A stretch of DNA of 64,000 nucleotides, taken from contig JAEOSU010000067.1 of NCBI GenBank assembly GCA_016840165.1, positions 1 to 64,000 of the forward strand, given 5' to 3'. The stretch is from Promethearchaeota archaeon (GTDB lineage: Archaea > Asgardarchaeota > Lokiarchaeia > Sigyniarchaeales > SOKP01). Position numbers and translations under genes: made by a program. Shown piece by piece: positions 10,840-38,818 of the stretch; position 1 is the first letter of the stretch; every line of letters starts with the position of its first letter. A model generated the notes under the pieces. That model ran no database searches and was not told the DNA's origin. It saw nothing but the letters and a program-made list of their open reading frames with translations.

Positions 10840-10895
10840 GTGAGTGAATTAAAGCATTTGAAAAATGAATGGGAAGCTATAATGAGTTGTATGGG
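10840..10895 (+). pseudogene. Original 5' fragment (MSELKHLKNEWEAIMSCMG) of the interrupted Fe-S oxidoreductase
   Basis: GTG one base after the GlcD-like stop; joining 10895 to 16492 gives TGT ATG GGT TGT GGG GAT TGT (CMGCGDC) in frame with the 16492-17671 body. Confidence 0.85.
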
Positions 10896-10908
10896 AGAAA
10901 AAAATTTA

Positions 10909-11376
10909 TTAAATAAAGATAAATGTAAGTACTAGAGTAAAATCAATTAATATTAAGAGAGAAAATATAAACCAATAAACCTTTTTTACTTTATTTATAA
11001 ATGAGTCTTTAAATTGAAATTTTACTTCAATAAATTTTTTAACTGATTTAATTTTCTCAGATTCATTTGCATATTCAGTGGGATTAATATATTTAAAAGG
11101 ATGTAAATATTTCTCATCAGAAAATATTTCAAAATTAGTTTCCTCATTTAGATTTAGTTTCTCACTTATTTTTATATTTGTACCTCGCCATTCAGCCCAT
11201 CTTTTATAATGCCTTTCGCTATTTGATTTAATTGTAAATAAAATGAGTACTAAGAATGCTGTTATACTTAATACAAATGAAATTTTACAGATTTTATCTA
11301 AAATTGTGTTTGATATATTAAATAGAAAAGGAATTATGGTTAAAATAGGTATAAAAATTGTCGTTATAGTCATCAA
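10909..11376 (-). CDS. Small multi-TM membrane protein, possibly 5'-truncated
   Basis: Three hydrophobic segments; frame stays open upstream to ~11484 without ATG/GTG/TTG and runs into the start of the divergent ATPase. Confidence 0.55.
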   Translation of the reverse strand: MMTITTIFIPILTIIPFLFNISNTILDKICKISFVLSITAFLVLILFTIKSNSERHYKRWAEWRGTNIKISEKLNLNEETNFEIFSDEKYLHPFKYINPTEYANESEKIKSVKKFIEVKFQFKDSFINKVKKVYWFIFSLLILIDFTLVLTFIFI

Positions 11377-11478
11377 AAATTTTAAATTTTCCCATATTTG
11401 ATTAATGTCAAATAATTCCTTTTCATGATATTTATCATATAAAAATTTTAAATTATCGAAATCAAATTTGCTGGGGTT

Positions 11479-13914
11479 ATGGGATTATTTCTCGTTGGAA
11501 CGATTATTATTATTTCAATTGGAATAATAATCTACATTATAATAATCCCATTTGATAAAGAATACAAAGCCTTAACCATTTTTGTTATTTTTTCCTTGGA
11601 AATATATATTTTAATTACCATTCGAGAATGGCTTCTAGCATTAATATTATTTGGGGCGATTTCATTCGTGGTTTCATTAGGCCATGAATCATTTAGAAAT
11701 AGAATTGTATCCATTTATCAAACAACTTTAGTTTCTTCAAAAAAGACAAGTTCAAAGATATTAAAACCATTAAAGAAGAAAGGTCATAAGAATTCACCTT
11801 TAAAAAATGATAAAAATGGAAAGAACGAGAAGAAGAAAAGAGCTTTATTCTGGCATGCAAGAGTAAAAATCTTACAAGGAACTCTTGAAAAAGAACCAAT
11901 TGAGAAAGACAAGACTAATCAAAATATAAAAACGTGGCTACAAGATTACTTTTCAAACAGTTCAAGATATTGTCTTGAGCTGGTTTCCCATAAAGATTTT
12001 AATTGGACGTTTTTAATGAGAGCTCGAAGGGAAGCTAAAGCACGTATTATTGGGGAAGCATTACTCACTCGTCTTTTAAGTATTTTTCCAGGTGTAGATG
12101 CAGAATTGGAAATTGAACCAGTAACACGCAAGAAAATCTATAAAAACAATGTATTTTGGGAAATCAAACTTCCTAAACCACCATATTTAGAAAAATTTAC
12201 CTTAATCAATGATTTTATAACGATTTTTCATAGAAGTAAACAAGAAATAAAAGTATATATAATGTGGAAAAAAGCAACTCCCAGAAAAATCGAAAAAATC
12301 AGATATAAAATTCAAAGAATGAAATTCAAGGATGAGGATGAGAAAAAGCAATATTTAAAAATGTGGGAAGAGGAACTTTTTCGAGTAAGAATTTTTGTCA
12401 GCTATCGAATTTTTGAAAAAGATCTTAGGGAAAGAGAACTTGAATTACAAAGGATTGAAGGAAGAATTAAGAGTTTAACTATGTCTGGTAGAAATTTGAA
12501 AAAAGCAGCTCAAATTAAAAGAGTCACCTCAGGAACCTATGGTAATATTCTTCGAGTTAATTTATTCTCTGGTAGTTATATCACGCCTTATTGCGTCGAT
12601 TTTGATATTCTTAAAATTACACCTTTAGTAAAACCTTTTACTCTTGAAAGTGAGAATGTGAAATATATCCCTACAGATATCAGTAATCCCGATTATATCT
12701 TAATTGGACGCCACGTGAATCAGGGAAGAAAAACAGAACATCGAATGCTGATTCAAAAGAATGGATTTGCTCAGAGTCTATTAGTAGCAGGGCAACAAGG
12801 CACAGGAAAAACTTATTTATTAGCTCAAATTGTAAACGAATTTCATAAGAAAGCGCCTGATATTGGTATTTTAATCTTGAATCTTGGAAAAGGGAACCAA
12901 GAAGGATTTTATAAGACTGATAAAGTGATTAAATTTGGTTCTCCTGATTTTCATGTTCCTTATTTTGTAAATGGACATTATCTTGAAAGGAGCATTCAAG
13001 AGACTGCTACTTATTTAATTGCTTCAACGGGATTAAAAAACATCGTAGAAAAAAACATGGTTAATGTAATGCAAGCATTTATAGATAAAAAAGGGAAATT
13101 ACCACGTTCATTAAAGTTTTTGTTTAAAGAATTGATAAGATACTTTGATCTCCACCCCTACCATGTAAAATTTCAAACTAATATATTACGAGCACTAAAA
13201 AATAGAGTATTAAGTCTTTTATCAAATCCAGTTCTAGAAAAGGCTATTAATCTAGCTCCTAATGATGAAATCCCTCAATGGTTTAAAGATTGGAGAAAAG
13301 GTAAAAAAGTATTCCTCGATCTCTCAATGTGTAATATTTATGAAAAACGATTAATAACCAATGCGATTTTTCAATTAATTCGCTCTCGCACACCTGATAT
13401 TGAGGTAGGGAAGCTTCAAAATATAATCTTGATTGATGAAGCTCATCAGATTTTAGAGAAATCTATAACCAACAATTATGATGATGATGACTATATTTCA
13501 AGAACTCAATTAGAGAAAATATTCAATGAATTATTGCGAGAATTCCGTTCAAAAGGTTTCTCTTTCATACTTTCTGACCAAACACCTTCAAGGCTTTTCG
13601 ACTGCGTTATTACACTTCCAAGCCTGAAAATATTGTTCCGTGTGGGTCATCCATGTAACACACGATTAGTTGGGAATCAAAAAGAGCAGGATTTTTTAAT
13701 GCTCCAAAAAAATCGACAAGCTTTGGTTCTGAACGGGATTACTGGTGAAAAATATATTATTGAAACTCTAGATTTTTCGTTACCACATCAAGGACCTGAG
13801 GGATCCATTAGATCAATAGATGATCAAAGATTTTGTGAATATTGTGGAACTCAAGTTGATTCTGATGCGAAATTTTGCGATTGCTGTGGAAAACCATTTC
13901 TTTTTTTTGATTAA
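11479..13914 (+). CDS. Membrane-anchored HerA/VirB4/FtsK-superfamily (DUF87-like) ATPase with C-terminal zinc ribbon
   Basis: N-terminal TM helices, Walker A GQQGTGKT, Walker B IILIDEAH, REFRSKG and SDQTPS motifs, CEYC..CDCC tail. Confidence 0.85.
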   Translation: MGLFLVGTIIIISIGIIIYIIIIPFDKEYKALTIFVIFSLEIYILITIREWLLALILFGAISFVVSLGHESFRNRIVSIYQTTLVSSKKTSSKILKPLKKKGHKNSPLKNDKNGKNEKKKRALFWHARVKILQGTLEKEPIEKDKTNQNIKTWLQDYFSNSSRYCLELVSHKDFNWTFLMRARREAKARIIGEALLTRLLSIFPGVDAELEIEPVTRKKIYKNNVFWEIKLPKPPYLEKFTLINDFITIFHRSKQEIKVYIMWKKATPRKIEKIRYKIQRMKFKDEDEKKQYLKMWEEELFRVRIFVSYRIFEKDLRERELELQRIEGRIKSLTMSGRNLKKAAQIKRVTSGTYGNILRVNLFSGSYITPYCVDFDILKITPLVKPFTLESENVKYIPTDISNPDYILIGRHVNQGRKTEHRMLIQKNGFAQSLLVAGQQGTGKTYLLAQIVNEFHKKAPDIGILILNLGKGNQEGFYKTDKVIKFGSPDFHVPYFVNGHYLERSIQETATYLIASTGLKNIVEKNMVNVMQAFIDKKGKLPRSLKFLFKELIRYFDLHPYHVKFQTNILRALKNRVLSLLSNPVLEKAINLAPNDEIPQWFKDWRKGKKVFLDLSMCNIYEKRLITNAIFQLIRSRTPDIEVGKLQNIILIDEAHQILEKSITNNYDDDDYISRTQLEKIFNELLREFRSKGFSFILSDQTPSRLFDCVITLPSLKILFRVGHPCNTRLVGNQKEQDFLMLQKNRQALVLNGITGEKYIIETLDFSLPHQGPEGSIRSIDDQRFCEYCGTQVDSDAKFCDCCGKPFLFFD

Positions 13915-13962
13915 ATCTTCTTATTAGTTTACTTTAAATTAGTCTGTCAAAAAATATATCAA

Positions 13963-14544
13963 ATGAGTGAATATGATGAAGAAGTGGAGAGTGAGGATGC
14001 AACTGATGATTATGAGGAATCTGAAGAATTGGATGAAGATGCCACAGATGACTATGAACCATTAGATGAAAATGAGGAACTTGAGAATGAAACTGACGAA
14101 GAGCTTGAAAATGATTTCGAACCGTTGGATGAAACTGATGAACTTGAAGACGAAATTGAGAATGATTTCGATCCTCGTGATGAATATGAAGATTTAGAAA
14201 AGGATAAAGAAGAACTTGAGGATTCTCAAGATAATCCTAAAGATATTAATGAAATAACTAAAGATAACTCTAGAGATGGCTTAAATAATAAACAATATCA
14301 TACAATGAGACTTGATGTCCCTCCTGGACGCTTCCCCCCAGAAAAACCAAAAGTTAGACGCCAAAAAGAGAAGAATCCAAGACCTCCTAAAAAAAAAGGG
14401 AAACTAATCGATTGGAATAGATTAAAGAAAATGTTACCCCTTAAAAAAAGGAAGAAAAAGATTTTTACAAAAAATGTTGAAGAACTCAAGGAAGAACTTA
14501 CGACTGTCAAATATAAAGAATTAAAGTATAAAAAACATAAATAA
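13963..14544 (+). CDS. Low-complexity protein with acidic repeat N-terminus and basic C-terminus
   Basis: Repeats EDATDDYE x2 and ENDFEPLDE/ENDFDPRDE, then Lys/Pro-rich tail. Confidence 0.7.
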   Translation: MSEYDEEVESEDATDDYEESEELDEDATDDYEPLDENEELENETDEELENDFEPLDETDELEDEIENDFDPRDEYEDLEKDKEELEDSQDNPKDINEITKDNSRDGLNNKQYHTMRLDVPPGRFPPEKPKVRRQKEKNPRPPKKKGKLIDWNRLKKMLPLKKRKKKIFTKNVEELKEELTTVKYKELKYKKHK

Positions 14545-14559
14545 CAAGGTGAAAATCTC

Positions 14560-16278
14560 ATAGGAGAATATGGGGAGGACGATTCCAAAGAAGAGAATAA
14601 GGAAATTGACAATAAGCTCAATCAAATAATAAAAAAAAAAAATAGTGAACTAATCAATGATTTTGAGCCTCTTGAAGAAAACCAAGATTTAAATGAAAGT
14701 CTTGAATCTAAATTTGAACCTAAAGATGAATCAAAATATATAAAAAATGACTTTGAAAAATATGAGCCAAATTCTGAATTTGAACATATAAATTATAACT
14801 ATAAAAGTAAAGAAAATTCAAAAAATGAAGGTTTCGATATTGAAAAGATTAAAAAAGCGATTAAAAAAAAGGATTGGGATGAAATTTCAAAGGATTGGAC
14901 AATCAAAATCCAAAAAAATCAGTATTCAGACATAGAGACTATTCAATTAAATCCTAGTCAAGATATTTCCAAGGAGAATCCCTTATATAAACATAAAGAG
15001 TGGTTAAATACAATCTATAATAATAAGCAATTAAACTTATATGACAAAGAAATTGGAAAAATTTGTGGAGTCAATACTTCTACAATTGGGAAATGGCGAA
15101 AAAAACATAATATACCAATAAAACCTTTAGGTAAAGGAAGATATATAGACAGAAGAAGTGGTAGAGTATATATTCGAGTTCCGAAAGATTATAATCACCC
15201 AGAATTGGGAAATTATAAAGATAGGATAAGAAATTTTCGACTAGAACATATTTATGTAATAGAACAGTATTTATCAAAACATCCTGAACTAGAAATCTCA
15301 AAGAAATTCTTAATAGATGGTAAATATTTAAAAATTGGATGTGAAATCCACCATATAAATCAAAATCCTCAAGACAATAAAATAGAAAATTTATGGGTCT
15401 ATAAAACAAAAAATGATCATGCTGAAGGTGAATTATCTTTGCGGGATTCTTTACAATTTTTAATAAAAACAAATCGAATTAGATTTAAAGATGGGAGATA
15501 CTATATAAATCAAGATAATAATTCTACTTTAAATCATTCTACTGAAGTTTCTATAAATCAAGATATTAAAGAACCTATCAATTATAAAGACATAAATTTA
15601 GTTAAAGATGAAATTAAAAAGATTAGTTGGGAAAAAATTTCAAATAATTGGACCGTAAAAAATCGAATCAACCAATTTGTAGAAAAAAAGATTCAAGTAG
15701 ATCCTACGAGGGAATGTTCAGTTGAAAATCCGCTCTATAAACATAAAGAATGGGTTGAAAGAATAATTAAAGATAAACGCTATAATTTAACAGATTCTAG
15801 ATTTGGAAAATTATGTGGAATATCAAGGGATAAAGCACGGTACTGGAGGGATAAAGTCCATAATATTAAAGGAAAAACAGATTGGGGCTATGACCGTATT
15901 GTTGATCCTAGTGATGGAAGAATTTGGATTAAGGTACCTGATGATTATGAAAATCCTATTGTTAAGAAGGAAGATCATCAACGTCGAAATATGTTAGAAC
16001 ATCGTTATAATATGGAACGATATCTTTCTGAACATCCAGAACTTAGAATTACTCAAGAAGCTTTAATCGATGGTAAATATTTAAAAACAGAATATCAAGT
16101 ACACCATATAAACTTAGACTTTCAAGATAATAGAATAGAAAACTTATGGGTTTTTAAAAACAATAAACTTCATCTGAAGGCTAGAGAATCTCTATATGCT
16201 CTAGTGGAAGATTTATTAAAACAAACTCAAATCATTTTCAAGGATGGAAAATATGAAATAAATAAAGAAAAGAATTAA
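14560..16278 (+). CDS. 572-aa protein: acidic NDFEPL leader plus two tandem HTH-HNH endonuclease units; probable ATA start
   Basis: Frame open from ATA 14560 (AGGTGA upstream) into the listed 15205 ORF; two copies of ENPLYKHKEW..GKxCG..W and EH..IHHIN..QDN.IENLWV. Confidence 0.85.
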   Translation: MGEYGEDDSKEENKEIDNKLNQIIKKKNSELINDFEPLEENQDLNESLESKFEPKDESKYIKNDFEKYEPNSEFEHINYNYKSKENSKNEGFDIEKIKKAIKKKDWDEISKDWTIKIQKNQYSDIETIQLNPSQDISKENPLYKHKEWLNTIYNNKQLNLYDKEIGKICGVNTSTIGKWRKKHNIPIKPLGKGRYIDRRSGRVYIRVPKDYNHPELGNYKDRIRNFRLEHIYVIEQYLSKHPELEISKKFLIDGKYLKIGCEIHHINQNPQDNKIENLWVYKTKNDHAEGELSLRDSLQFLIKTNRIRFKDGRYYINQDNNSTLNHSTEVSINQDIKEPINYKDINLVKDEIKKISWEKISNNWTVKNRINQFVEKKIQVDPTRECSVENPLYKHKEWVERIIKDKRYNLTDSRFGKLCGISRDKARYWRDKVHNIKGKTDWGYDRIVDPSDGRIWIKVPDDYENPIVKKEDHQRRNMLEHRYNMERYLSEHPELRITQEALIDGKYLKTEYQVHHINLDFQDNRIENLWVFKNNKLHLKARESLYALVEDLLKQTQIIFKDGKYEINKEKN

Positions 16279-16374
16279 AATAATACAGTTGGCTAGAATG
16301 GCAATATTAAGAAATTTTAATTATTAATGAAATTATATTCTTTTTATCTTAGAAAAAAATTTATTGCTGTAATA

Positions 16375-16449
16375 ATGTCAAAATTGAAAAATTTAAAAGA
16401 ACAATGGCAGGCCATAATGTCCTGTATAGGTTTTGGAATCTCTCCTTAA
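16375..16449 (+). CDS. Element-borne replacement 5' fragment of the Fe-S oxidoreductase (MSKLKNLKEQWQAIMSCIG-FGISP*)
   Basis: 13/19 aa identical to the 10840 fragment with diverged codons; out of frame with the gene body unless 61 nt are skipped. Confidence 0.8.
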   Translation: MSKLKNLKEQWQAIMSCIGFGISP

Positions 16450-16502
16450 TCGCGGAAAGGTTTATAATTATATTTATAACTCCCGCTTGGGTTGTGGGGA
16501 TT
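16437..16502 (+). other. Terminal imperfect hairpin at the element's right end (within the 61-nt coding gap)
   Basis: GCGG(16452-55)/CCGC(16483-86) and TTATAA/TTATAA inner stem; CTTAA/TTGGG and AATCTCT/GGGGATT outer pairing. Confidence 0.6.
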
Positions 16503-17818: not shown

Positions 17819-18742
17819 ATGACAACAGAGAGATATGGCAAAATAACGTTTATAGGAAAAGCTGGAATGGGGAAAACTACAATAAAGAAAGTTATCTTTC
17901 AGGGAGAAGATCCAAATGAGTTAGTAATTTTCCCACTTGAAGCTACTATTGGAATTAAATATTCGGTACACAATTATATGGATTCAAAAGTTAGTTTAAT
18001 TGATACACCAGGTCAATCTATGCAATTAATATTAGAAGATGAAGAAAAGCAGATATTTGTATTTGAAAATGCAAATGCTATAATATACATCTTCGATTAT
18101 CCTACTTGGATTTCAGATTCTCAAGATATTATTGATGATATTAAAAAAATCTATGAAATTAATAAAAAACGTAAATTTGGTGCCAAAATCGTTTTATTTA
18201 TGCATAAAGTTGATCTATTAATAAATAAAAAAATTGGTAGTAGGCTTGATATAATTAAACATCAAATAATTAGACAATTAAGTTTACCTGAAGAATTACC
18301 AATTTATTTCACAAGTTTACATCCAAATTTAATTTACACTATTTATAATGCATTATCTGATACTATTAGTTATTTTTCAGAAGACAATGTGAAATTAAAA
18401 GATATTATCATGAGATTAATCAATGGATTAGCTAAAACAAGCTGTTTTGTTACCAATCAGGAAGATAACATTATAATTCAAGTATTTTCAGAGGACTTTG
18501 ACACTAGTCTTCTTTATTATTTATATGAAAGTATTTATAGACTAAATACGTCGTCTGAATTTACTTCATCAGAATATAATTTAGTAAATCTTGGCCCAAA
18601 ATTATTGCATATAGCAGAAAAAAACATAAGCGAGTTCCATTCTAATTTCAAGAACGTGATGATTTTCTCGGAGACTTTAGAAAAAAATGATATGATTGAG
18701 ATAATAGATAAATTAAAGAAAGAACTAAACCAATATTATTAA
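17819..18742 (+). CDS. Rag/Gtr1-like small GTPase with putative C-terminal roadblock domain
   Basis: G1 GKAGMGKTT, G2 EATIG, G3 DTPGQ, Rag-type G4 HKVD, G5 TSL; ~120-aa C-terminal extension. Confidence 0.8.
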   Translation: MTTERYGKITFIGKAGMGKTTIKKVIFQGEDPNELVIFPLEATIGIKYSVHNYMDSKVSLIDTPGQSMQLILEDEEKQIFVFENANAIIYIFDYPTWISDSQDIIDDIKKIYEINKKRKFGAKIVLFMHKVDLLINKKIGSRLDIIKHQIIRQLSLPEELPIYFTSLHPNLIYTIYNALSDTISYFSEDNVKLKDIIMRLINGLAKTSCFVTNQEDNIIIQVFSEDFDTSLLYYLYESIYRLNTSSEFTSSEYNLVNLGPKLLHIAEKNISEFHSNFKNVMIFSETLEKNDMIEIIDKLKKELNQYY

Positions 18743-18772
18743 TATTTTTAGATAGAAATTAAAAAACACATC

Positions 18773-19822
18773 ATGCTGCGACAAGTTTTCATAATTATAA
18801 ATGATACAATAGCATATCAAAGAACTTATGCTAAAGGATTAGATAGTAATCTTTTTACAAATATATATCAAAAACTTAAAAAAGCAGCATTTTCGAAATT
18901 TGGAGGAGAAGCAGGTTCTTACGAGTTTTTTGAATATAAGCTGTCGTATATAGTTGATGAGAATTTAAATTTAATTTTACTCTTTGTTTCTGGATTAGGT
19001 GACAATTTCGATGATATAAAACCACAATTAAAAAAATTCAAAACTGAATTTTTAGAATTTTATGGGGATAATATCAAGGATGATAACTTCGAAATAATAA
19101 GTGATATTCTAGATCCAATTGTTGATAATGTTCACAGAAATTTAAAACCAAAAATATCTTTAGTGGGCTTTTCAGGAGTAGGGAAAACTACGACTACCAA
19201 ATTAATAAAATCTGAAGAGATTCCTATGCAACACATTCCTACGATAACTGGTGAAGTTGCCACTATTAAAATTGGAAAACTTCACTTCTTTTTATGGGAC
19301 TTCGCAGGACAAGATCAATTCGATTTTCTTTGGGAGAAATTTATCAGAGGAAGTGATGCTGTGTTATTAATAACGGATTCTACTTTAGAAAATCTTGAAA
19401 AGAGTAGATATTTCTTTGAATTAGTAAATAAAATAGTTCCTACTGCTCGTTTAGCAGTCATTGGAAACAAACAAGATTTACCTAATGCAATGAAAGTTGA
19501 AGATATTGAAAGATTATTGGGGCATAAAACTTATTCATTCATCGCCGTTGATCCAAACAATCGCCCTAAAATGATTCGTATAATAGCAGATCTCCTAGAT
19601 ATGGATACTGGAGTATCACCATTATTACAGCCTATGTTCGAAAGAGATGTTCTAATGGATAAACTACAAGAAGCATTACAACAGGGAGAATTTGAAAAGG
19701 TTATTGAAATCTTTGAAAAAATCAGTAATTTATGTCTTGAATTGGGAGATGATTCTCTTGCGATTGAATTTCAAAACAAAAGTAAAAAAATTCAGGATAT
19801 GTTGGCAAAACTTAGTAGCTAG
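18773..19822 (+). CDS. Longin-like domain plus Arf-like small GTPase plus helical tail
   Basis: GFSGVGKTT, HIPTI, WDFAGQ, GNKQDL; N-terminal MLRQVFII..YQRTY..LILLFVS longin-like pattern. Confidence 0.8.
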   Translation: MLRQVFIIINDTIAYQRTYAKGLDSNLFTNIYQKLKKAAFSKFGGEAGSYEFFEYKLSYIVDENLNLILLFVSGLGDNFDDIKPQLKKFKTEFLEFYGDNIKDDNFEIISDILDPIVDNVHRNLKPKISLVGFSGVGKTTTTKLIKSEEIPMQHIPTITGEVATIKIGKLHFFLWDFAGQDQFDFLWEKFIRGSDAVLLITDSTLENLEKSRYFFELVNKIVPTARLAVIGNKQDLPNAMKVEDIERLLGHKTYSFIAVDPNNRPKMIRIIADLLDMDTGVSPLLQPMFERDVLMDKLQEALQQGEFEKVIEIFEKISNLCLELGDDSLAIEFQNKSKKIQDMLAKLSS

Positions 19823-19843
19823 TAAAAAGATGTTTACGAATCC

Positions 19844-21529
19844 TTACCATGTTCTTGTTAAATTTTGTAAAAATACTAAAACTTCTCTATTTCCTAAGGG
19901 AACGATATTAGATTGAAAAACAATTTGATTATCCTTCAAAGGTAAAATAAACTTCATTTCGATTGATTCATTTTCTTTAAGTGCTTTTTCAATATTGATT
20001 ACTGCCTCATCAGCAATTTCTTTTGGTAAAAAATCATTTATAGTTTTCCCTATAAATTCTGTTGTTGTAAATGCTTGTTCAAAAATTTTTTTGATTTTTT
20101 TATCTAATTTAATCTCTAAGAAGACTCCATTTTTAGAAATTTTAAAAATTGAGAATGGAATATGATTAAGAAGGATATTTTTAGATATTTCACTTTGTCG
20201 TAATTCTTCTTTATTTTGTATTCGTTCCACCGCTGTGCCTAATTCCATCCCCAATGAAATAACTATTTCCATCTCTTCAGAGCTAAGTGATTTATTACCC
20301 TTAAAAATCATATATATAGCACCAATAATTTCGAATTTTGAAAATAACGGGAGTACTGCAGCAGAATTAAATTCAATTCCTTCAAAAAATTGTTCTAATA
20401 ATTCAGGAAAATTTTCATTATTAAGTACAACACCCTTATTAAAAACTATTTCATAAGGGCTTTTGGTTATATCTAATTTATTGTTTTGCTGAATGAAATA
20501 TGAAGGAAAACCTTTATGAACTTTAACACTAGCGATATTTTTAGATTTACCGACTAAGTATATACAGCATCCTTTAAGATCAAATAAATCTATAGAATTA
20601 TCAAGAATATTAGTTAATAATTCTGATAAACTATTAGCTTGGTTCGCAATACTGATGATTGTATTTAATATGTCCATTTTTTTAACCTGTCCCTTAAGTT
20701 TCTCCTCAAATACTTGGATGTCTGTAATATCATGAAACATATATTGAATAAAATGCTCATCTCCTAATATGATTTCATTTACACTTACTTCTAAGTATAA
20801 TTTCTTACCAGTCGATTTTTTTATCCTTGATATTATTGGAGGTGGGTTATTAATTAGATGTTCGACCATAGTCGGATCTATTAAACCTCCATCAAATAAT
20901 TCAAGTTTAAGGGCATGGAGCCCAATAATCTCCTCTCTAGATTTTTCGACTAATTTTTCAGCTTCTAAGTTAACATCAACGATTGTTCCATTTTTGCGAT
21001 TTGTAATAATAATTGCATCTTTAGCAGCCGTAAAAAGCGCTTGGTAACGATTCTCAGCCATTTTTATAGTTCTAAGAGCCGGTTTAATAGATTCAAAATA
21101 AGAGAAGAAGAAATTTTTGATTTCTTTCAATTTTTCAGGATCACTGTTAATATCCTTAACTTTATTATCAAAAGCTTTATATCCTTCTTCTAAATCTGCT
21201 AGATTTTGAGCAAAACTTTCAAGAAGTTCGTGGGCTAACATCAATGAGATATCGTTTTTAATATCAGTTATGATACTAATCATTAAACTTTCATTTCCGC
21301 CCCTTGCATGCTTATTAGGTAATTTAAAGAATAAATTTGCGGTTTTAATTTTTTTAAATATATGAATAAAAATCCCTTTAGTTTGGAGTTCCATTAATGA
21401 AGGAATTTCTTTTACATTATGTTTTTCTAATGATTTAGGTGCTTTTAAAAAGATTTTTGGACCATAAAATGGGTCAAAGCGACTAAGTATTAAAGCTTCC
21501 AAGGTTTTCACAGATTTGTTATAATTCAA
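19844..21529 (-). CDS. uDENN/NPRL2-like longin fused to PAS, GAF and PAS sensor domains
   Basis: LILSRFDPFYGPKIF N-terminus; PAS (DAIII..VDVNLEAEKL..REEIIG..HDITD); GAF (SAAVLPL..IIGAI); second PAS; no kinase domain. Confidence 0.75.
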   Translation of the reverse strand: MNYNKSVKTLEALILSRFDPFYGPKIFLKAPKSLEKHNVKEIPSLMELQTKGIFIHIFKKIKTANLFFKLPNKHARGGNESLMISIITDIKNDISLMLAHELLESFAQNLADLEEGYKAFDNKVKDINSDPEKLKEIKNFFFSYFESIKPALRTIKMAENRYQALFTAAKDAIIITNRKNGTIVDVNLEAEKLVEKSREEIIGLHALKLELFDGGLIDPTMVEHLINNPPPIISRIKKSTGKKLYLEVSVNEIILGDEHFIQYMFHDITDIQVFEEKLKGQVKKMDILNTIISIANQANSLSELLTNILDNSIDLFDLKGCCIYLVGKSKNIASVKVHKGFPSYFIQQNNKLDITKSPYEIVFNKGVVLNNENFPELLEQFFEGIEFNSAAVLPLFSKFEIIGAIYMIFKGNKSLSSEEMEIVISLGMELGTAVERIQNKEELRQSEISKNILLNHIPFSIFKISKNGVFLEIKLDKKIKKIFEQAFTTTEFIGKTINDFLPKEIADEAVINIEKALKENESIEMKFILPLKDNQIVFQSNIVPLGNREVLVFLQNLTRTW

Positions 21530-29229: not shown

Positions 29230-30477
29230 TTAAACAAAATTATCAATCGAGACTTGATGATCATCTGAATTTATATATCTTAAATCTAAAATTGGTGAGA
29301 TCTTGACAATTTCGTGATTTATATGGTAAAATTTCTCCACTTTTTCATAAAATTTCTTGATAATCTCTTTTTGTACTCTGATCGGGTTATTTAATAAAAA
29401 TTTCCAATTAAATCCATCATATTCTTTAATTCTAATTAAAATAATTTTATATTTTTCAGCAATTTCTAATTCTAATTTATCTCTCGCAATTTGATTAGCA
29501 AACTCAGAGAATGATTTATGAAATAAAGATGTAAAATTATCGTGTTGGATTCCATCATACTCAAAGGCAACTTTAAATGAGTAGTATTTATTATCCTGAC
29601 CTTTTAATTTGATTTTTCCGTTATATCCATCAAATCTTAATTTTCCAGCAGAAATGATAAATTTAAAACTCTTATTGTTCAACTCTATTGTTTTTAAAAC
29701 TTTTCCCGAACATCCACATGCTTCTCTTATTGAAATTTCAGATTTAAAATTTAAATTAAATACATTATTCATATAGAATGTAGTGATCTCTTGACATTTT
29801 CTTTGTTGGCATATAGGGCACCATGTATCGTCATATATAAGATGTCCTACACGAGCAGTCCAGTTTTTATGGTTTTTATTACATTTTATTTTAATGTATC
29901 TTTTGGTAGGTCTCTCTTTCATTGAATTAAATATTTCTTCTTTAGTGATTATATAACCATTTTTATTTTTAATATATTTTTTTATGGCGTTATAGGAAAT
30001 TGGATTATTTCTATTCTTTTTAGATGTCCAAACGTCATATAATATATTTTTCCCTTCAAATCTACCATATTCTTGAATTAACCAATCTTTAATCCACTCG
30101 GTAATTGTCAATCTGTTTAGGTTCCACTTAAAAGCTAAATCCGATAGGGTTTTAATTTTAATATTGTTTTCAGGATAAAAATTTACTAGTTGATTAATAA
30201 TTTCTTCTTTCAATTTGTACTTTTTTAATCTCGCATCAAGATGAGTGGAAGGCCATAATTGAGAGCGAATTTCAAATGACTTTTTAACTCCAAATTCATT
30301 ATCGAGATATTTAATAATTTTTAACCTAAAACTTGGATATGGTATTTCAAAATATCTCGCATATTCTCTTAAAGACCTAATATTTTTACTTCTCTTGAAT
30401 TCATTTAAATCATTTAGTTGAAAATTTCTAAAGAGTTTGTTGAAATAAGTAACATAATCGTTTCTTTTTGTAGACAT
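29230..30477 (-). CDS. Putative endonuclease: HTH-like region, CxxxH..CPxC zinc motif and PD-(D/E)xK-like domain
   Basis: KCNKNH..WCPIC, LRFDGY...AFEYDGIQH..RD..K..IILIRI; start placed at ATG 30477. Confidence 0.65.
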   Translation of the reverse strand: MSTKRNDYVTYFNKLFRNFQLNDLNEFKRSKNIRSLREYARYFEIPYPSFRLKIIKYLDNEFGVKKSFEIRSQLWPSTHLDARLKKYKLKEEIINQLVNFYPENNIKIKTLSDLAFKWNLNRLTITEWIKDWLIQEYGRFEGKNILYDVWTSKKNRNNPISYNAIKKYIKNKNGYIITKEEIFNSMKERPTKRYIKIKCNKNHKNWTARVGHLIYDDTWCPICQQRKCQEITTFYMNNVFNLNFKSEISIREACGCSGKVLKTIELNNKSFKFIISAGKLRFDGYNGKIKLKGQDNKYYSFKVAFEYDGIQHDNFTSLFHKSFSEFANQIARDKLELEIAEKYKIILIRIKEYDGFNWKFLLNNPIRVQKEIIKKFYEKVEKFYHINHEIVKISPILDLRYINSDDHQVSIDNFV

Positions 30478-30586
30478 AGTACTAATTTTTAATTTGATCT
30501 GAATAAATGTCTTACTTTCTCTAATTATGAATAAACAAATAATCATTTGGACGGTGGTTATTTTTCAAAATTTAGAGGAATCCTAT

Positions 30587-31156
30587 TTAGAATTCCTTAA
30601 TATCTTTCAACATATATTCCAAAAGATGATTAATAGCATCATCCAACTTTCCAGAGTTATCTACTATGAAGTTTGCTTCTGGAAACTTCTGATTATTTTT
30701 AGCTCGTTCAATTCTTTCATTTAATAATTCTTCACTTTCTCTTTTTCGATCTTTTATTCTTTGGTAAGTTATTTCAAAGGGAACATCAATAAAAACAACC
30801 TTGACATTTTTATATTTTTCTTTAGCTTCATTTACAATAGTACGGCTTACATTAATAATAACTGGATGCCCATTCTTAAGCCAATCTTCAATTTCAATAT
30901 GTATTCCGTAATCTAAACCATATATATGCCATTTCAATGCGTATTCTCCATCTTTCTCCATTTTTTTGAATTCTAATGGTGAAATTGAGATATTTTTTTC
31001 AGTTTCAGAAGGAGGTCTAGTGATATATCTTTTAGGAGCATAGATTTTTTTTAAATTTGAAGGATAAATATTAACTACACCAGAGATAATAGAGTCTTTA
31101 CCAGCACCAGAATTTCCAACCACCAAAAATAATACGCCAGAAAAATATTTTGTCAT
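30587..31156 (-). CDS. phnN: Ribose 1,5-bisphosphate phosphokinase
   Basis: VVGNSGAGKDS, RYITRP, WHIYGLDYGI, NVSR, DNSG. Confidence 0.85.
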   Translation of the reverse strand: MTKYFSGVLFLVVGNSGAGKDSIISGVVNIYPSNLKKIYAPKRYITRPPSETEKNISISPLEFKKMEKDGEYALKWHIYGLDYGIHIEIEDWLKNGHPVIINVSRTIVNEAKEKYKNVKVVFIDVPFEITYQRIKDRKRESEELLNERIERAKNNQKFPEANFIVDNSGKLDDAINHLLEYMLKDIKEF

Positions 31157-31378
31157 TTACTTCTTGATCTAATACTTTATTAATCTATATTCTTATAAGG
31201 TTCATTTAAAATATAAAGTCTTTAATAATTTGAACAGTCTTTATTTTTCTTACAGGTTAAAAAAAGATATACAAAGAATCACCCTAATCAAAACAAAAAA
31301 AATTAAAGTATGATTGATGTTATCACTCTTGTAAGCAAGATTAAATTTTCATTAAATATTTAAAATTTTCATTTAGTT

Positions 31379-31801
31379 ATGACAAAAAAAAAGATTAAAG
31401 ATACTACAAAAATTTCAGACATCCCTGAAAGTTATCAAAGGTATTTAGATGAAATTCATGTTATTTCACGTAAAAAAAAAGGGGGCTGGGTAAGTAATAA
31501 AGAAATAGCTGAAAGACTTCAGATTGAACCGCCATCTGTTACTGGGATGTTGGAGAAATTAAAAAATAAAGGATTAATTAAATGGGAACCAAGAAAGGCT
31601 ATAAGACTAACTGATAAAGGAAAAGAAATTGCAATGCAATTAAGTGAAATACACTCATTGTTATACCAATTCTTTGCAAAAGTTTTGAAAATACAAGATA
31701 AAAAAGTGATAAATGATTTATCTTGTGAAATTGAGCATCATATTACCCCAGATGTTAAAGACTCTTTAGAAGAATTCCTCTCAAAATATTTGAATGGTTA
31801 G
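31379..31801 (+). CDS. DtxR/MntR family metal-dependent transcriptional regulator
   Basis: YLDEI, IAERLQIEPPSVTGML, LTDKG, CEIEH. Confidence 0.9.
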   Translation: MTKKKIKDTTKISDIPESYQRYLDEIHVISRKKKGGWVSNKEIAERLQIEPPSVTGMLEKLKNKGLIKWEPRKAIRLTDKGKEIAMQLSEIHSLLYQFFAKVLKIQDKKVINDLSCEIEHHITPDVKDSLEEFLSKYLNG

Positions 31802-31824
31802 ATTTAATTAATATTCTTAATTCA

Positions 31825-32625
31825 TTGATTCAACTATTTAAAAAAATACTCTTGGAACATGTAAAAATGTCAGAAGAATTAAAGCAAAAAATAGATAAAG
31901 TTCATGAAAATTTCAGTAACTTTACTAATTTCATTGAACTGCAAAATTTTCGGTCATTTCTGTTATTTACCTTGACTAGTCAGGTACCTACAAACATTTT
32001 AGCTCAGTTTGGATTAGGTGGAAACAAAGAGATAATTAATTTACCATACAATCCTGTTTTTAAGATTTATTACCAAAAAATAAATTTGATGTCTGCTGGT
32101 TCGCTAATTGTCTACATAAAGAACGAACCTATATCTGGTGAATTTTTATTAGAAAAAGATGATTCAGTTATAAAACAATTTCTAAATCCTAATGAAATGA
32201 GTCTCGCATTTCGAGGAAAGGAAAAATTCATTCTACCGATGATTAGTGATTGCAGTATATTTGATGTTGATAACAATTCAAAATTAACAGTAAATGTCGA
32301 TGATATCTTTCATTCATTAGAAAGTTTCCTAGCTGTTGGTGAACCAAATTTACTTTTTGTTATTGACGCTAAAAATGCATCTGAGCCGGATATATTATAT
32401 ACTTTCAATATAATGCCACAAATGCCAACTAAATTAGATAAAAAAGTATTAAAAATCGATGTATTTTTGGACAATGAACATAAAACTCAGGATATCACTT
32501 ATTTAAAGCGTGAAGAAGATTATAGTATAACATATTTAAAAGATATAAAAGAAGTAAGTCATGCTGATTTATATAAATCTGCATTTTCACTATTATTACA
32601 TATTAAATCTTTCACTCAACCGTAA
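31825..32625 (+). CDS. Hypothetical protein (start possibly ATG 31867)
   Basis: 266-aa ORF, no motif recognised. Confidence 0.65.
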   Translation: MIQLFKKILLEHVKMSEELKQKIDKVHENFSNFTNFIELQNFRSFLLFTLTSQVPTNILAQFGLGGNKEIINLPYNPVFKIYYQKINLMSAGSLIVYIKNEPISGEFLLEKDDSVIKQFLNPNEMSLAFRGKEKFILPMISDCSIFDVDNNSKLTVNVDDIFHSLESFLAVGEPNLLFVIDAKNASEPDILYTFNIMPQMPTKLDKKVLKIDVFLDNEHKTQDITYLKREEDYSITYLKDIKEVSHADLYKSAFSLLLHIKSFTQP

Positions 32626-32877
32626 TTCTGTTCTAATGTGTTCTTTTTAATCTTTTACTTTCTTTTAAAAATATTATTTAAAAAGTAAGTATATTATTAC
32701 TTTAATAATACTTTATGCTTATTAGAAATCTGAAAGTATTGTATTCGTTAGCCATTAAGCGATTAATACAATTAAAGGATTAATATATTCAATTTATAAA
32801 CAACCCGACAAAATATATAACGTATAATATTCTTTATTAAGGCTTATTTCAATTTTTAGAATAAAGGGTTGTGTAAA

Positions 32878-33081
32878 ATGAGGATAATAACAATTAATTT
32901 ACCAGAAAAATATTTACAAGCTATTCAAATTCTAAACGATATGGGAGTTTATCCATCTAGAAGTGAAGCTATAAGAATTGCGTTAAATGATTTTTTAGCA
33001 AAAGAATTGAAAATGTATAAAGATCTTGATGATGAAAACTTTAAAATGCTGATAAGAAGCAAATCAAATAAACGTAATTAA
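32878..33081 (+). CDS. Ribbon-helix-helix (CopG/Arc/MetJ) regulator
   Basis: MRIITINLP..YPSRSEAIRIAL. Confidence 0.88.
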   Translation: MRIITINLPEKYLQAIQILNDMGVYPSRSEAIRIALNDFLAKELKMYKDLDDENFKMLIRSKSNKRN

Positions 33082-33235
33082 TTCTACTTTTTTTATTCTT
33101 TTTTTTATTAAATTAGTCTTATTTAAATTAATTTAATTAAAGAAATTAAAGCTTAACTAAGAGGATAATTAAAATATTAAATATATAGAAAACATAATAG
33201 GAATAATTAAAAATTAGATAAAAAGAAGATAATTT

Positions 33236-34498
33236 ATGGCAAAAAATACTCAAATTTTAGCTATTTTAACGCTTTTCTCATCAACTCTTTTTAGTATCAT
33301 CACACCAATGGCTTTTGAAATTTCATCAGCATTAAGTTTCGATGAAAATCAAGTCATTTTTATTAATTCAATGTTTTTGATGGTCGGCGCCATAAGTTCT
33401 CTTTTTTGGGCATTTTTAGGAGATAAAATTTCTAGGAAAATCTTACTAATCATTAGTACATTAGAATGGTCAATTCTTACTTTATTGACTATATTTTCAA
33501 CTAATTTTTTCAGTTTATTGATGTTTCAACTAATTACAGCAATAGGATTTGGGGCGACATTACCTTTAATTTTCTCATTAACAGTCGATCTAGTAGGTTC
33601 AGAAAACCGGGGTAAAAAATTTGGAGATTTAAGTGCAATCTATGTTTTAGGAAACGGTTTAGGTCAAATGCTTTCGGGATTCTTAATTGATTATTATACA
33701 TGGCAGATACCTCTTATAATTGTGTCTATATGTGGACTTTTTTGTACAGGATTCTTATTTTTGGTTGAGGAACCCGCAAGAGGTGCAAAAGACGATCTTT
33801 ATAAAGCAATTGATGAGAGTGCTCTTGGATTAGGTTATAAGATAAAATTCAAAGATCTCAAGCAAATCTGGAAAGTAAAATCAACAATTTGGATATTATT
33901 ATTAAATTTTGCGATGTTCATATCTATAGGTGCGATATCATCATTTTTTATTTCAATGCTTAAAAATGATTATGGAGTTAGCTCTACTCTCGCAACTATG
34001 TTTTTAATTATAATTTTTGGTTCACAAGTTCCAGCAGGACCCATATTTGGAAAATTGGGGGACAAAAAGTATAAAACTGATAAAAAAGGTAGGATGAAAA
34101 TTGTATTTATATGTCTTTTAAGCGGTTCAATCCTTTATATTATAGCGTTTTCATTGTTATTCATATCAAATGAATTTTCGATTGTAATTCTCTTTATTAT
34201 TCTCGCATTGGGAGGCGCCTTTCTGTTTGGGGGTATTGACCCGTTAACACAGGCTACACTCGGTATTAATCCTCCTCAGATCAGATCAACAATATATTCC
34301 CTTAATTATTTAACTTATACATTCGGCAGGAGTATCAGTTTATTACTACTTGGGCAATTCTTTATAGCCTTTAACAACCTTTATAGTCCAGGTTATTTCA
34401 TTTTATCAATCATGGCCTTAACGTGTACATTATTGCTTATACCAATTGTTAGATTATTACCTAAAGACATAGACAATATCAAGTCTGAAAAAGTCTAA
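33236..34498 (+). CDS. MFS transporter
   Basis: ~12 hydrophobic segments; LGDKISRK motif A, ENRGK. Confidence 0.9.
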   Translation: MAKNTQILAILTLFSSTLFSIITPMAFEISSALSFDENQVIFINSMFLMVGAISSLFWAFLGDKISRKILLIISTLEWSILTLLTIFSTNFFSLLMFQLITAIGFGATLPLIFSLTVDLVGSENRGKKFGDLSAIYVLGNGLGQMLSGFLIDYYTWQIPLIIVSICGLFCTGFLFLVEEPARGAKDDLYKAIDESALGLGYKIKFKDLKQIWKVKSTIWILLLNFAMFISIGAISSFFISMLKNDYGVSSTLATMFLIIIFGSQVPAGPIFGKLGDKKYKTDKKGRMKIVFICLLSGSILYIIAFSLLFISNEFSIVILFIILALGGAFLFGGIDPLTQATLGINPPQIRSTIYSLNYLTYTFGRSISLLLLGQFFIAFNNLYSPGYFILSIMALTCTLLLIPIVRLLPKDIDNIKSEKV

Positions 34499-34532
34499 TA
34501 TTAAACACAAATCTGTCATAGGAACTATTATT

Positions 34533-35234
34533 ATGTATATAAATAGAGAAATTTGCACAGGGTGTGGACAGTGTGTTATTGTATGCCCTGTTCAAGCAAT
34601 TAGATTAGTTGATAATAAAGCTGTTATAGATGAAGACAAATGTGTTGAGTGTGCCATTTGTTATCGAAATGCAGAATGCCCAGTTAAAGCAATTAGACCT
34701 ACAAGATTAAAATGGCCAAGGATAATTAGAAGTCCATTTAGCAATGTAATAGCAACCCATAAGATCACAGGCATTCCCGGGAGAGGAACAGAGGAAATGA
34801 AAACGAACGATGTTACTAATCGATTTAGTATTGGGGAAATTGGAGTTTCCATTGAAGTAGGACGACCTGGAGTAGGAACTTATCTTGAAAATATTGAATT
34901 ATTCACAACAAGATTATCTAAAATTGGTATAGCTTATGAAGAAAAAAGCCCAGTAACAGCATTAATAATTGATAATGAAGGGCATATTAATGAAGAAGTA
35001 AAGAATCAACGCGTGCTTTCAGCAATTATTGAGTTCAAAATACCAGATAAAAAACTATCTCAAGTATTGGAAGTTATTAGAGAAGTAGAGAAAGAAATTG
35101 ATACTGTTTTTTCTGTTGGTATTATATCAAGAATAAAAGAAAATAATACAAAAGATATTATAAATAGAATATCTCAACATGGTTTTGAAGTAAGACCAAA
35201 TGCTAAAGTCAATGTTGGATTAGGTAAGCCATGA
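34533..35234 (+). CDS. 4Fe-4S dicluster protein with conserved GRGTEEMKTNDVT domain
   Basis: CTGCGQCVIVCP, CVECAIC..CP, GRPGVG, KVNVGLG. Confidence 0.85.
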   Translation: MYINREICTGCGQCVIVCPVQAIRLVDNKAVIDEDKCVECAICYRNAECPVKAIRPTRLKWPRIIRSPFSNVIATHKITGIPGRGTEEMKTNDVTNRFSIGEIGVSIEVGRPGVGTYLENIELFTTRLSKIGIAYEEKSPVTALIIDNEGHINEEVKNQRVLSAIIEFKIPDKKLSQVLEVIREVEKEIDTVFSVGIISRIKENNTKDIINRISQHGFEVRPNAKVNVGLGKP

Positions 35235-35255
35235 GATTATGGAGAAGATAAAATT

Positions 35256-35840
35256 ATAACTCATTCATTACACAGGAAAGGGATTGAAAATGATTTAAAA
35301 AAGGATTATGTTATTCTAGCAATGTTAGCGGCTGGCATCAATGATAAATATGATGATTCACGACAAAAATTAATAAGAGTAGGGGAAATTTTGAAACAAC
35401 ATAATCCTGTTAATATAATGCCTGAAATAGGATGGAGAACTTCCCCTACTGTTACAGCTACATTCAATGACCTTGAAACAGTAAAAAATATAATTCAACA
35501 ACTTAAAAAAGAAGATCTTGGTCTCTCGATTGTCATAAGTGGATTGATTCCTGAAATAAAACGCACTATTAGAGAAGTTGATTTAGATATTCATACAGTA
35601 CATTTATCCTTAGGTACATTCGGGAAAAAGGAGTTATTACCATCTGAAAAGGTTTTAGAAATTACTACAATGTGTGGACATCACACAGTTTCTCCAAAAT
35701 CAATAACATATTATGTCAAATTGATTAAGCAAGGCAAAATAACGATTGAGATAGCAGCAAAAAAGTTAGCTAGACCTTGTGTATGTGGTATTTTTAATAC
35801 TTCTCGAGCAATAGAAATCCTTACTACATTAACTAAATAA
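35256..35840 (+). CDS. Conserved hypothetical protein (THSLHR...TMCGH...CxCGIFN), probable ATA start
   Basis: Frame open upstream of ATG 35322 to ATA ACT CAT TCA TTA CAC AGG, with GGAG upstream. Confidence 0.75.
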   Translation: MTHSLHRKGIENDLKKDYVILAMLAAGINDKYDDSRQKLIRVGEILKQHNPVNIMPEIGWRTSPTVTATFNDLETVKNIIQQLKKEDLGLSIVISGLIPEIKRTIREVDLDIHTVHLSLGTFGKKELLPSEKVLEITTMCGHHTVSPKSITYYVKLIKQGKITIEIAAKKLARPCVCGIFNTSRAIEILTTLTK

Positions 35841-35954
35841 TATTTTCAAATTTTGCAATACTTGCAATACAGCTCAAGATATAAATACCTAACTATTATA
35901 TTTTCAATTAAAACTGAGCGATTTAGAATTTATAGTTTTTAAATAAAGTTCAAT

Positions 35955-36608
35955 TTGGAGGAAAAATTAATGAAAATTGGGATAATTGGCACAGGAAGAT
36001 TAGGGAGTGCTCTAGGAAAAATTTGGGCAGAAAAGGGTCATATGATTATGTTTGGCTCTCGAGATCCTCAGAAAGCAAAAAAGTTAGCTAATTCAATCGG
36101 ATCTAATGCAAGTGGAGGAACATATGAAGAAGCTGCAAAATTTGGGGATGTTATCATTCTTGCAGTTCCATGGTCAGGAGCAAAAGAATCAATCAAAACA
36201 GCAGGAAATTTAGATAGTAAGATTATAGTAGATTCTACTACTACTGCTGCACCCCATTTGGGAGGCCCTTTAATAGGACGTACTCCATCTGCAGCAGAAA
36301 AAGTCGCAAAATGGGCAGTAGGGGCTAAAGTAATAAAAGCAGTTCATACTATTGGAGTAGAAAGTTTAAATAACTTACAATTTGGTTCCCAAAAAGCAAA
36401 TTTATTTATTTGTGGAGATAATTTAGAAGCAAAATCAATTGTTCGTACTTTGGGAGAGGATATCGGTTTTGAAGTAATAGATGCTGGGCCACTCACAAAT
36501 GCGAGGCTTACTGAACCCCTCGCGATGCTTTGGATTGAATTAGCTTACAAACAAGGCATGGGTACAGACATAGCGTTCAAATTATTACGCCGTAGGAAAG
36601 CTAAATGA
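35955..36608 (+). CDS. NADPH-dependent F420 reductase-like oxidoreductase
   Basis: MKIGIIGTGRLG, GSRDP, LAVPW, CGD, DAGPL..AR..E; start probably ATG 35970. Confidence 0.85.
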   Translation: MEEKLMKIGIIGTGRLGSALGKIWAEKGHMIMFGSRDPQKAKKLANSIGSNASGGTYEEAAKFGDVIILAVPWSGAKESIKTAGNLDSKIIVDSTTTAAPHLGGPLIGRTPSAAEKVAKWAVGAKVIKAVHTIGVESLNNLQFGSQKANLFICGDNLEAKSIVRTLGEDIGFEVIDAGPLTNARLTEPLAMLWIELAYKQGMGTDIAFKLLRRRKAK

Positions 36609-36722
36609 AAGAATTAACAAATTAAGTTTTAATACTTTTTATTTTTTACATTAGATTTTTTAAGAGATAAAGACGCAATACTTTAAGTATACTTTAATAA
36701 GAATGCTTGTAAGTACAAAATT

Positions 36723-37664: not shown

Positions 37665-37745
37665 GTATTAAAAACATCAGAAAGACTTAAGTAACTTTTT
37701 ATATTATCTTATTGAAGTAGAATATAATCTAATTATTGATTTTTA

Positions 37746-38807: not shown

Positions 38808-38818
38808 ATTGTATAATA

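Follow-up and report, generated by a model that had tools for sequence, protein, structure and literature searches.

Asgard archaea encode NPRL2-like longin domains fused to signaling domains of the two-component type, for which a role in regulating growth signaling has been surmised, and the same work also describes longin-fused Rag-family GTPases in these organisms (Liu et al., bioRxiv 10.1101/2020.10.19.343400, Fig. 5c; Nature 2021). With that work, the idea of prokaryotic sensor domains being wired to longins of this kind is already part of the literature. A second study, which draws on 15 deposited models, emphasizes Heimdallarchaeia, and includes no genomic or fusion statistics, describes a Gly-Pro at the start of strand beta2 together with a conserved arginine in the longins of GTPase-activating proteins (GAPs) and in their Asgard look-alikes. 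This "GP motif" is reported to be specific to GAP longins, being absent from the longins of FNIP2, NPRL3, DENND, TRAPP, and adaptins, and the same study asks whether ArfR or Rag/Gtr GTPases partner the Asgard proteins (Traffic 2025; PMC12290439). For MK-D1, Tran et al. (2024; PMC10933270) describe GTPases with longin or roadblock fusions as well as a single Rag-like pair encoded in one operon, and they note that genome layout is seldom of help in pairing Asgard GTPases with regulators. Here we analyze a Promethearchaeota locus in which a longin sensor protein lies beside a Rag-like and an Arf-like GTPase. The locus is contained in a window of 64,000 nucleotides, i.e. positions 1–64000 of contig JAEOSU010000067.1, to which all coordinates refer unless a locus is named; P-numbers denote proteins, L-numbers the loci compared, and g1–g6 genera. 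From sequence comparison and modeling, we propose, tentatively and as something slightly short of an even chance, that the trio is a sensor-controlled module whose longin docks on an adjacent GTPase, most probably as a GAP that uses Arg76.

The three genes are those of a Rag/Gtr-like GTPase (P0001, 307 amino acids; 17819–18742, + strand), an Arf-like GTPase (P0002, 349 amino acids; 18773–19822, + strand), and a longin-PAS-GAF-PAS sensor protein (P0003, 561 amino acids from a TTG start; 19844–21529, − strand). Their limits are taken from the open reading frame (ORF) list and their identities from Pfam, and the ORF list contains the three frames, the co-oriented GTPase pair, and the 21-bp convergent gap (19823–19843, between the two stop codons) just as the first-pass annotation had them. 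The two GTPase genes lie 30 bp apart in the same orientation and probably share one operon. Across the orthologues, the convergent 3' ends of the Arf-like and sensor genes range from a 44-bp gap to an 18-bp overlap. The true start of P0003 is probably the GTG at 21511 (Val7) rather than the TTG at 21529, because the database gene call (P0005) is six residues shorter, at 555 amino acids, and the orthologues begin with M/L-x-A-L-I-L.

In P0003, Pfam identifies a first PAS domain (residues 161–270; 20720–21049, − strand; PAS 1.8e-9, PAS_9 3.5e-9), a GAF domain (residues 299–436; 20222–20635, − strand; GAF_3 1.2e-6, GAF_2 1.5e-6), and a second PAS domain (residues 455–558; 19856–20167, − strand; PAS_4 2.8e-8). 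The same search finds no kinase, cyclase, helix-turn-helix or other DNA-binding domain, or any other output domain, in agreement with the earlier description of a PAS-GAF-PAS protein without kinase or cyclase output. The N-terminal domain (residues 1–155; 21065–21529, − strand) has no Pfam family match, and none at E 0.1, and its assignment as a longin comes from an AlphaFold2 (AF2) model and structure searches. The model, built from an alignment of 72 family domains, has a predicted local distance difference test (pLDDT) score of 90 and a predicted template modeling score (pTM) of 0.86, and its topology is beta-beta-alpha-beta-beta-beta-alpha-alpha.

Independent structure comparisons place this model close to the longins of eukaryotic GAPs. 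When Foldseek is run against the PDB, the top 7 matches are NPRL2/Npr2 chains of GATOR1/SEAC (E 2e-6 to 7e-5, template modeling (TM) score 0.64–0.68), and FLCN comes next. VIA-align, which is independent of Foldseek, was used in two runs and covered 48,161 chains; its top match is FLCN (Z 14.0, root-mean-square deviation 2.4 Å over 135 residues), followed by NPRL2 (Z 13.2), the Lokiarchaeal longin 8YQG (13.1), and Npr2 (12.0), with C9orf72-SMCR8 (11.8) and DENND1A (11.3) further down. Generic longins, i.e. those of Sec22, VAMP7, Ykt6, sigma-adaptins, and TRAPP, score Z 10 or below, such that the FLCN/NPRL2-type matches stand 1–4 Z units over them. In a shape search of the ESM-Atlas, Promethearchaeota clusters come first, some with fused Arf domains, and NPR2 (TM 0.69–0.73) and Avl9 are the only eukaryotic families returned; a Heimdallarchaeal cluster of which 23% of the members match Pfam Folliculin is also retrieved. 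The modeled domain is assignable to the FLCN/NPRL2/SMCR8 class of longins, not to NPRL2 in particular. As such, the NPRL2/folliculin-type longin of the first-pass annotation holds as a class, with both NPRL2 and FLCN among the best Foldseek matches of residues ~1–150, while the label "NPRL2-like" is too specific, since the two aligners differ in their top match (FLCN in one, NPRL2 in the other) and neither Pfam NPR2 nor Pfam Folliculin recognizes the family.

The N-terminal stretch that had been singled out from the translation is present at residues 14–28 (LILSRFDPFYGPKIF). Within it, Gly23-Pro24 (21458–21463, − strand; FYGPK in the translation) correspond to the GP motif and open strand beta2 in the model. 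Arg76 (21302–21304, − strand), part of the translated HARGG at residues 74–78, lies in the modeled beta4-beta5 loop. Both elements are nearly invariant in the 72-domain alignment (Gly23 in 66 of 72, Pro24 in 70, and Arg76 in 68), as are Asn65 (72 of 72), Gly77 (66), and Ser85 (71). The longin GAPs act through catalytic arginine fingers, namely R164 in FLCN, R78 in NPRL2, and R147 in SMCR8, and the model makes Arg76 a candidate for such a finger. The Arg76 region also has an apparent likeness to the ARG...SIIT stretch of FLCN.

The first GTPase, P0001, matches Pfam Gtr1_RagA over residues 8–225 (72.3 bits against a cut-off of 22, 5e-20), and its nearest solved relatives in a PDB profile search are RagA, RagC, Gtr1, and Gtr2. 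Its 20 aligned orthologues keep the motifs GKAGMGKT, DTPGQ, HKVD, and TSL, with G4 invariably HKVD or HKID, and the Rag-type HKVD and TSL motifs noted earlier are among them. The GTPase domain (~residues 1–185) is followed by a C-terminal domain of ~120 residues, presumed to be a roadblock domain; the profile alignment spans RagA 6–217 and Gtr1 1–241, and enters the C-terminal domains of both by 35–60 residues. Among Lokiarchaeal proteins, the Rag-like GTPases LokiRagO and LokiRagM (PDB 8YL2, 9M28) and a roadblock-longin protein (PDB 8YQG) have been solved. The LokiRag chains are too distant in sequence to be matched by P0001 in the PDB sequence search, and a literature search on these 2 structures returned only Tran et al.

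The second GTPase, P0002, consists of a 120-residue N-terminal domain, an Arf-type core, and a helical C-terminal tail. The core matches Pfam Arf over residues 123–253 (69.1 bits against a cut-off of 22.3, 4e-19), its closest PDB chains are Arf1, Arf6, and Arl8, and it carries the motifs GFSGVGKT, WDFAGQ, and NKQD, of which WDFAGQ is conserved together with the following FDFLWEKF. The protein is 72–97% identical across more than 120 clusters. On sequence features it is Arf-like rather than an Arf or ArfR in the strict sense, because a 120-residue globular domain precedes the core in place of the N-terminal amphipathic helix of the Arf family. This domain (residues 1–122; 18773–19138, + strand), labeled a longin in the first-pass annotation, has a hydrophobic pattern that fits beta-beta-alpha-beta-beta-beta-alpha-alpha, and is longin-like by that pattern alone; it has no match in Pfam, a PDB sequence-profile search, or an Atlas feature search, and hhalign gives it a probability of 0.4% against the GP-longin family. 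In the alignment it has neither a GP motif nor a conserved arginine at the corresponding place. A paralogue of P0002 with 706 amino acids (G000:C53:13349-15469; L043:4350-6467) is 68% identical in the GTPase core and 36% in the N-terminal domain, and carries ~380 extra C-terminal residues without a Pfam family; its gene immediately precedes that of an aspartokinase with ACT domains.

Orthologues of P0003 (~552 amino acids, longin 59–99% identical) are found in more than 120 clusters, all labeled as Promethearchaeota/Lokiarchaeia and including Lokiarchaeum GC14_75. We examined 20 orthologous loci, and GTPase genes adjoin the 3' end of the sensor gene in all 17 where the contig reaches that far. 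In genus g2, the entire block of ~20 kb is syntenic, with genes for CCG, Rag, Arf, sensor, transglutaminase-like, FTR, a 307-residue protein (P0004, or P4), and AAA proteins. Because the whole block is syntenic and the orthologues are limited to this genus, adjacency within g2 is weak evidence for a functional link on its own. In L010 and L014, the Rag-Arf pair is duplicated in tandem as a unit. Lineage-specific tandem duplications, seen overall in L004, L008–L010, L014, and L015, produce Rag-Arf-Rag-Arf, Rag-Rag-Arf, and Rag-Arf-Arf orders, and the duplicated genes always lie beside a single sensor gene.

The trio also occurs in 3 divergent versions whose flanks are unrelated to the main locus. 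For example, L036 encodes P0126 (528 amino acids, longin 54% identical, C-terminus with PAS only), convergent to Arf-like (54%) and Rag-like (46%) genes, with a 108-residue ORF between the genes and response-regulator, toxin-antitoxin, and STAS genes as flanks. In L037, an Arf-like gene (55%) is 30 bp away from the gene for P0134 (647 amino acids, longin 43%) and is followed by a Rag-like fragment (44%). In L021 (G219:C398), a Rag-like gene (42%), an Arf-like gene (52%), and the gene for a 385-residue longin-PAS protein (41%) are all on one strand, and this is a second copy, as the same genome also holds the main trio. A quick maximum-likelihood tree built from 142 domains groups the longins of P0003, P0126, P0134, and L021 in one clade (Shimodaira–Hasegawa-like approximate likelihood ratio test, SH-aLRT, 98). 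These versions support the view that, within this clade, linkage to a Rag-like and Arf-like pair extends beyond local synteny. A further GTPase of 498 amino acids follows the pair in L036 (L036:10501-13533), and RsbR_N/STAS and STAS genes, of stressosome/partner-switching type, come after it.

For comparison, two GTPase genes occur within 2.5 kb of 1.6% of the ORFs of at least 200 amino acids in the source bin and a GTPase occurs within 3 kb of 13.5%, a level not exceeded by the other GP-longin paralogues, and these bin-wide counts describe a related but different organism because the window contig (G000:C48) is probably mis-binned. Specifically, window positions 30000–49000 share 91–95% nucleotide identity over ~18 kb with G273, a genome of genus g2, and 65–77% with the assigned genus g1, and C30, a different contig from the same bin, finds nothing comparably close in G273. 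P0003 and P0001 orthologues are found in no other g1 genome searched, and the contamination estimate of the bin is 6.3%. The identity of the FTR protein does not split g1 from g2; the DNA comparison does.

The longin of P0003 belongs to a family in which fusion to GTPases is common. A search with residues 1–155 against 1.84 billion cluster representatives, at a threshold of E 0.001, returns 229 proteins of 138 to 2317 residues, and the domain is N-terminal in almost all of them. Among 94 family representatives scanned with Pfam, PAS is found in 48, Arf in 32, Ras in 31, HATPase_c in 18, and Gtr1_RagA in 16, and with local hidden Markov models (HMMs) a GTPase domain directly follows the longin in 49 of 149 representatives. 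These fusions are strong (Rosetta-stone) evidence that longins of this class would work with Arf-like GTPases and PAS sensors. The source bin has five family members, i.e. P0003, a longin-Arf-PAS-PAS protein of 1126 amino acids, a longin-GTPase protein of 347 amino acids, and two shorter ones. The 1126-residue paralogue (G000:C30:248176-251556; L022:2177-5554) combines a GP-longin, an Arf-like GTPase, and two PAS domains with a long C-terminal region that has no Pfam kinase match at E 0.01; a second hairpin-like stretch, FCRWDENLGVKIEF, lies after its GTPase. Orthologues of this paralogue, of about 1125–1145 amino acids, are present in most genomes of the GTDB family.

Given these features, the module might operate as follows. 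The Rag-like and Arf-like GTPases would be produced from one operon and act as a pair, as Rag GTPases do, while the product of the convergent gene would be a cytosolic sensor whose PAS-GAF-PAS part binds a small ligand or cofactor. This part would control the only other domain of the protein, the N-terminal longin, which would dock on one of the neighboring GTPases. In the most probable version, docking would insert Arg76, with the Gly23-Pro24 hairpin beside it, and accelerate GTP hydrolysis, such that the state of the ligand sets the GTP/GDP state of the pair. We favor GAP chemistry because of the conserved arginine and GP hairpin, the published GAP specificity of the GP motif, and the catalytic glutamine that both GTPases keep (DTPGQ and DFAGQ), as expected where an arginine finger acts in trans. 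Binding, the choice of target GTPase, GAP chemistry, GTPase pairing, and regulation of the longin by its sensor domains are all inferred; a complex prediction with P0001, P0002, and the longin gives an ipSAE of 0.00 in both runs, which, being without controls, is evidence neither for nor against binding. A more elaborate version, which we regard as improbable, would make the Arg76 longin the catalytic half of a longin pair and the N-terminal domain of P0002 its non-catalytic half, comparable to FNIP, NPRL3, or C9orf72, with the ligand setting the state of a Rag-like/Arf-like heterodimer. The trio would then be a prokaryotic precursor of FLCN/GATOR1-Rag nutrient signaling, in which a small-molecule sensor takes the role that other upstream machinery has in eukaryotes.

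Several observations weigh against a sensor-controlled GAP module. On the side of the protein, the Pfam models hardly see the family (Folliculin PF11704 matches 1 of the 72 domains, at E 0.0028, and NPR2 PF06218 none), and the family HMM, when searched against PDB sequences, retrieves no FLCN, NPRL2, or SMCR8 chain and only spurious helical matches. Three members of the GTPase-linked clade read GS or GA in place of GP. On the side of the genes, a sample of 301 Asgard genomes yields true orthologues of P0003 and P0001 in a single genus, g2, of one GTDB family, and the sensor gene, being convergent with the GTPase operon, is not co-transcribed with it. In genus g6 the block is kept, with an orthologous sensor that has no last PAS domain, and both GTPase genes are absent between the sensor and CCG genes, together with the gene for P0004. 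Outside the trio, the gene convergent with that of P0125, a longin-PAS protein of 271 residues and the closest relative by domain, is unrelated, P0127 and P0129 have no GTPase nearby, and no GTPase lies within 8 kb of any of five g3 paralogues; P0133, P0141, and P0128 were left out of this judgement as their contigs are too short. Linkage to the GTPases, for which the first-pass annotation had suggested looking across Lokiarchaeia, holds in four divergent versions of the trio in one clade, while P0125, P0127, P0129, the g3 paralogues, and genus g6 do without the pair.

A further point of this kind is that many longins are subunits of guanine nucleotide exchange factors (GEFs) or of platforms, not GAPs. 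The main competing explanation gives the longin of P0003 just such a role. According to this explanation, which is unlikely but has to be taken seriously, the longin is a non-catalytic partner, i.e. a platform, dimerization, or GEF-type domain that recruits, scaffolds, or activates the GTPase pair under sensor input. It would pair with the roadblock of P0001 or the N-terminal domain of P0002, in the manner of the longins of Ragulator, FNIP, NPRL3, Mon1-Ccz1, TRAPP, and DENN proteins. It is established that longin and roadblock pairs commonly build GTPase platforms, as reportedly described by Levine et al. (2013), and this counts for such a role. Good structural matches to the P0003 model likewise include DENND1A/B, FNIP2, NPRL3, Mon1-Ccz1, and the dimeric Lokiarchaeal longin 8YQG (Z 13.1), some members of the clade are without the proline of the GP motif, and the linkage evidence fits a non-catalytic longin equally well. 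What speaks against it is that Arg76 is kept in 68 of 72 domains, that FLCN and NPRL2 outrank the GEF and platform longins in VIA-align, and that the GP motif is reported as GAP-specific (PMC12290439).

The second rival denies a functional link altogether: the gene order would have been inherited in a narrow lineage, and the longin would act on other partners or serve as an oligomerization or output domain. The complete synteny of the g2 block from CCG to AAA, the convergent arrangement without a common operon, and the g6 orthologues, P0125, P0127, P0129, and g3 paralogues without Rag/Arf neighbors are all as this explanation would have it. The same is true of the other GP-longin paralogues, whose proximity to GTPases (within 3 kb) does not exceed the background of 13.5%, and of the about 90 small GTPases in the bin, which offer alternative partners; for MK-D1, Tran et al. 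(2024; PMC10933270) remark that GTPase genes as a rule do not share operons with longin genes. It sits poorly, however, with the 3 divergent versions of the trio, which have unrelated flanks, one changed orientation, and, in one genome, a second copy, or with a family of which a third is fused to Arf-like GTPases. The GTPase genes and the 3' domain of the sensor are, moreover, missing together in g6, and overall we consider the absence of a link rather improbable. Finally, coupling at the RNA level, with transcriptional interference or antisense to the GTPase operon arising from near-abutting or overlapping 3' ends (21-bp spacer here, 18-bp overlap in several orthologues), is at odds with the co-directional trio of L021 and the 108-residue ORF between the genes of L036, and its probability is minimal.

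The neighborhood of the trio has other features of its own. Directly upstream of the Rag-like gene is a CCG/Fer4 (GlpC/HdrD-like) gene that starts at 16433, and ahead of it (within 10840–16500) the window carries an insert with a tandem HNH nuclease (ORF 15205–16278, Pfam HNH_3). In orthologous loci, the CCG gene adjoins the Rag gene directly, without the HNH-bearing insert. Two genes from the sensor, P0004 (23393–24316, + strand, 307 amino acids) is a conserved hypothetical protein with 348 homologues, found only in Promethearchaeota, and has an invariant, GP-hairpin-like E-I-D-x-S-F-G-P-N after its first beta strand and a C-terminal half confidently predicted as all-helical. Like the N-terminal domain of P0002, P0004 was considered as a candidate for the second, non-catalytic longin subunit that GAPs of this class have, and the searches gave no match in its favor. 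BLAST and hhalign against the GP-longins are not significant (hhalign probability 1.8%), the N-terminus of its AF2 model has a pLDDT below 50, Foldseek has no match at E 0.001 and yields weak TPR-like rows, and the Atlas returns only its own clusters.

Should GAP activity be confirmed, the arginine-finger mechanism of longins would predate eukaryotes and would originally have been driven by ordinary prokaryotic ligand sensors; should it not, P0003 would be a further example of a published class of domain fusions. The module represents one clonable candidate regulator-target pairing, with one longin sensor and two named GTPases that are kept in four divergent versions.

Among eukaryotic systems, the FLCN-FNIP2 complex (6NZD, 8DHB, 6ULG), a GAP for RagC/D, provides the best VIA-align match; FLCN has a catalytic arginine in its longin and Rags as its targets, to which Arg76 and the GTPases beside P0003 would correspond. 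Yet FLCN has a DENN domain where P0003 has PAS-GAF-PAS, identity is ~12%, and no FNIP-like partner is identified at this locus. GATOR1, i.e. NPRL2-NPRL3-DEPDC5 (7T3B, 8FW5, 9V0J), acts on RagA/B and provides the best Foldseek match, with the GP on its N-terminal hairpin and a Rag as target. By contrast, P0003 does not have the C-terminal domain of NPRL2, and there is no DEPDC5 or NPRL3 homologue. C9orf72-SMCR8 (7O2W, 7MGE), a longin-pair GAP on Arf (VIA-align Z 11.8), is relevant since the P0003 family is mostly fused to Arf-like GTPases; however, it is eukaryote-specific and has DENN modules and a WDR41 partner.

Among prokaryotic systems, MglA-MglB of Myxococcus likewise has a small GTPase with an adjacently encoded regulator of the roadblock/longin superfamily, but MglB forms a roadblock dimer that has neither an arginine finger nor sensor domains. 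The operonic pair of MK-D1 comprises two adjacent Rag/Arf-like GTPases with roadblock/longin accessories and a predicted heterodimer, and no longin sensor is reported as its neighbor (Tran et al. 2024; PMC10933270). In the Asgard GP/Arg longins of the Traffic study (PMC12290439), the beta1-beta2 hairpin carries a Gly-Pro, and this and the conserved arginine are arranged as in P0003; in comparison with that study, we now count the family (229 representatives) and name candidate partners. Closest of all are the fusions of Liu et al. (10.1101/2020.10.19.343400), which are, as depicted there, the same kind of protein as P0003, with an N-terminal NPRL2/FLCN-like longin followed by prokaryotic sensor domains in Lokiarchaeia, and P0003 conforms to that type with its PAS and GAF domains in an Asgard genome. 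The portions of that work available to us report no conserved Rag/Arf-like neighborhood for these fusions, whereas the P0003 clade has a fixed Rag and Arf pair, and the literature we searched contains no report of one longin clade that keeps such a pair through deep divergence and changes of context. The module is real and well defined and of a published kind, and what it adds to the systems described before is the fixed pair of candidate target GTPases.

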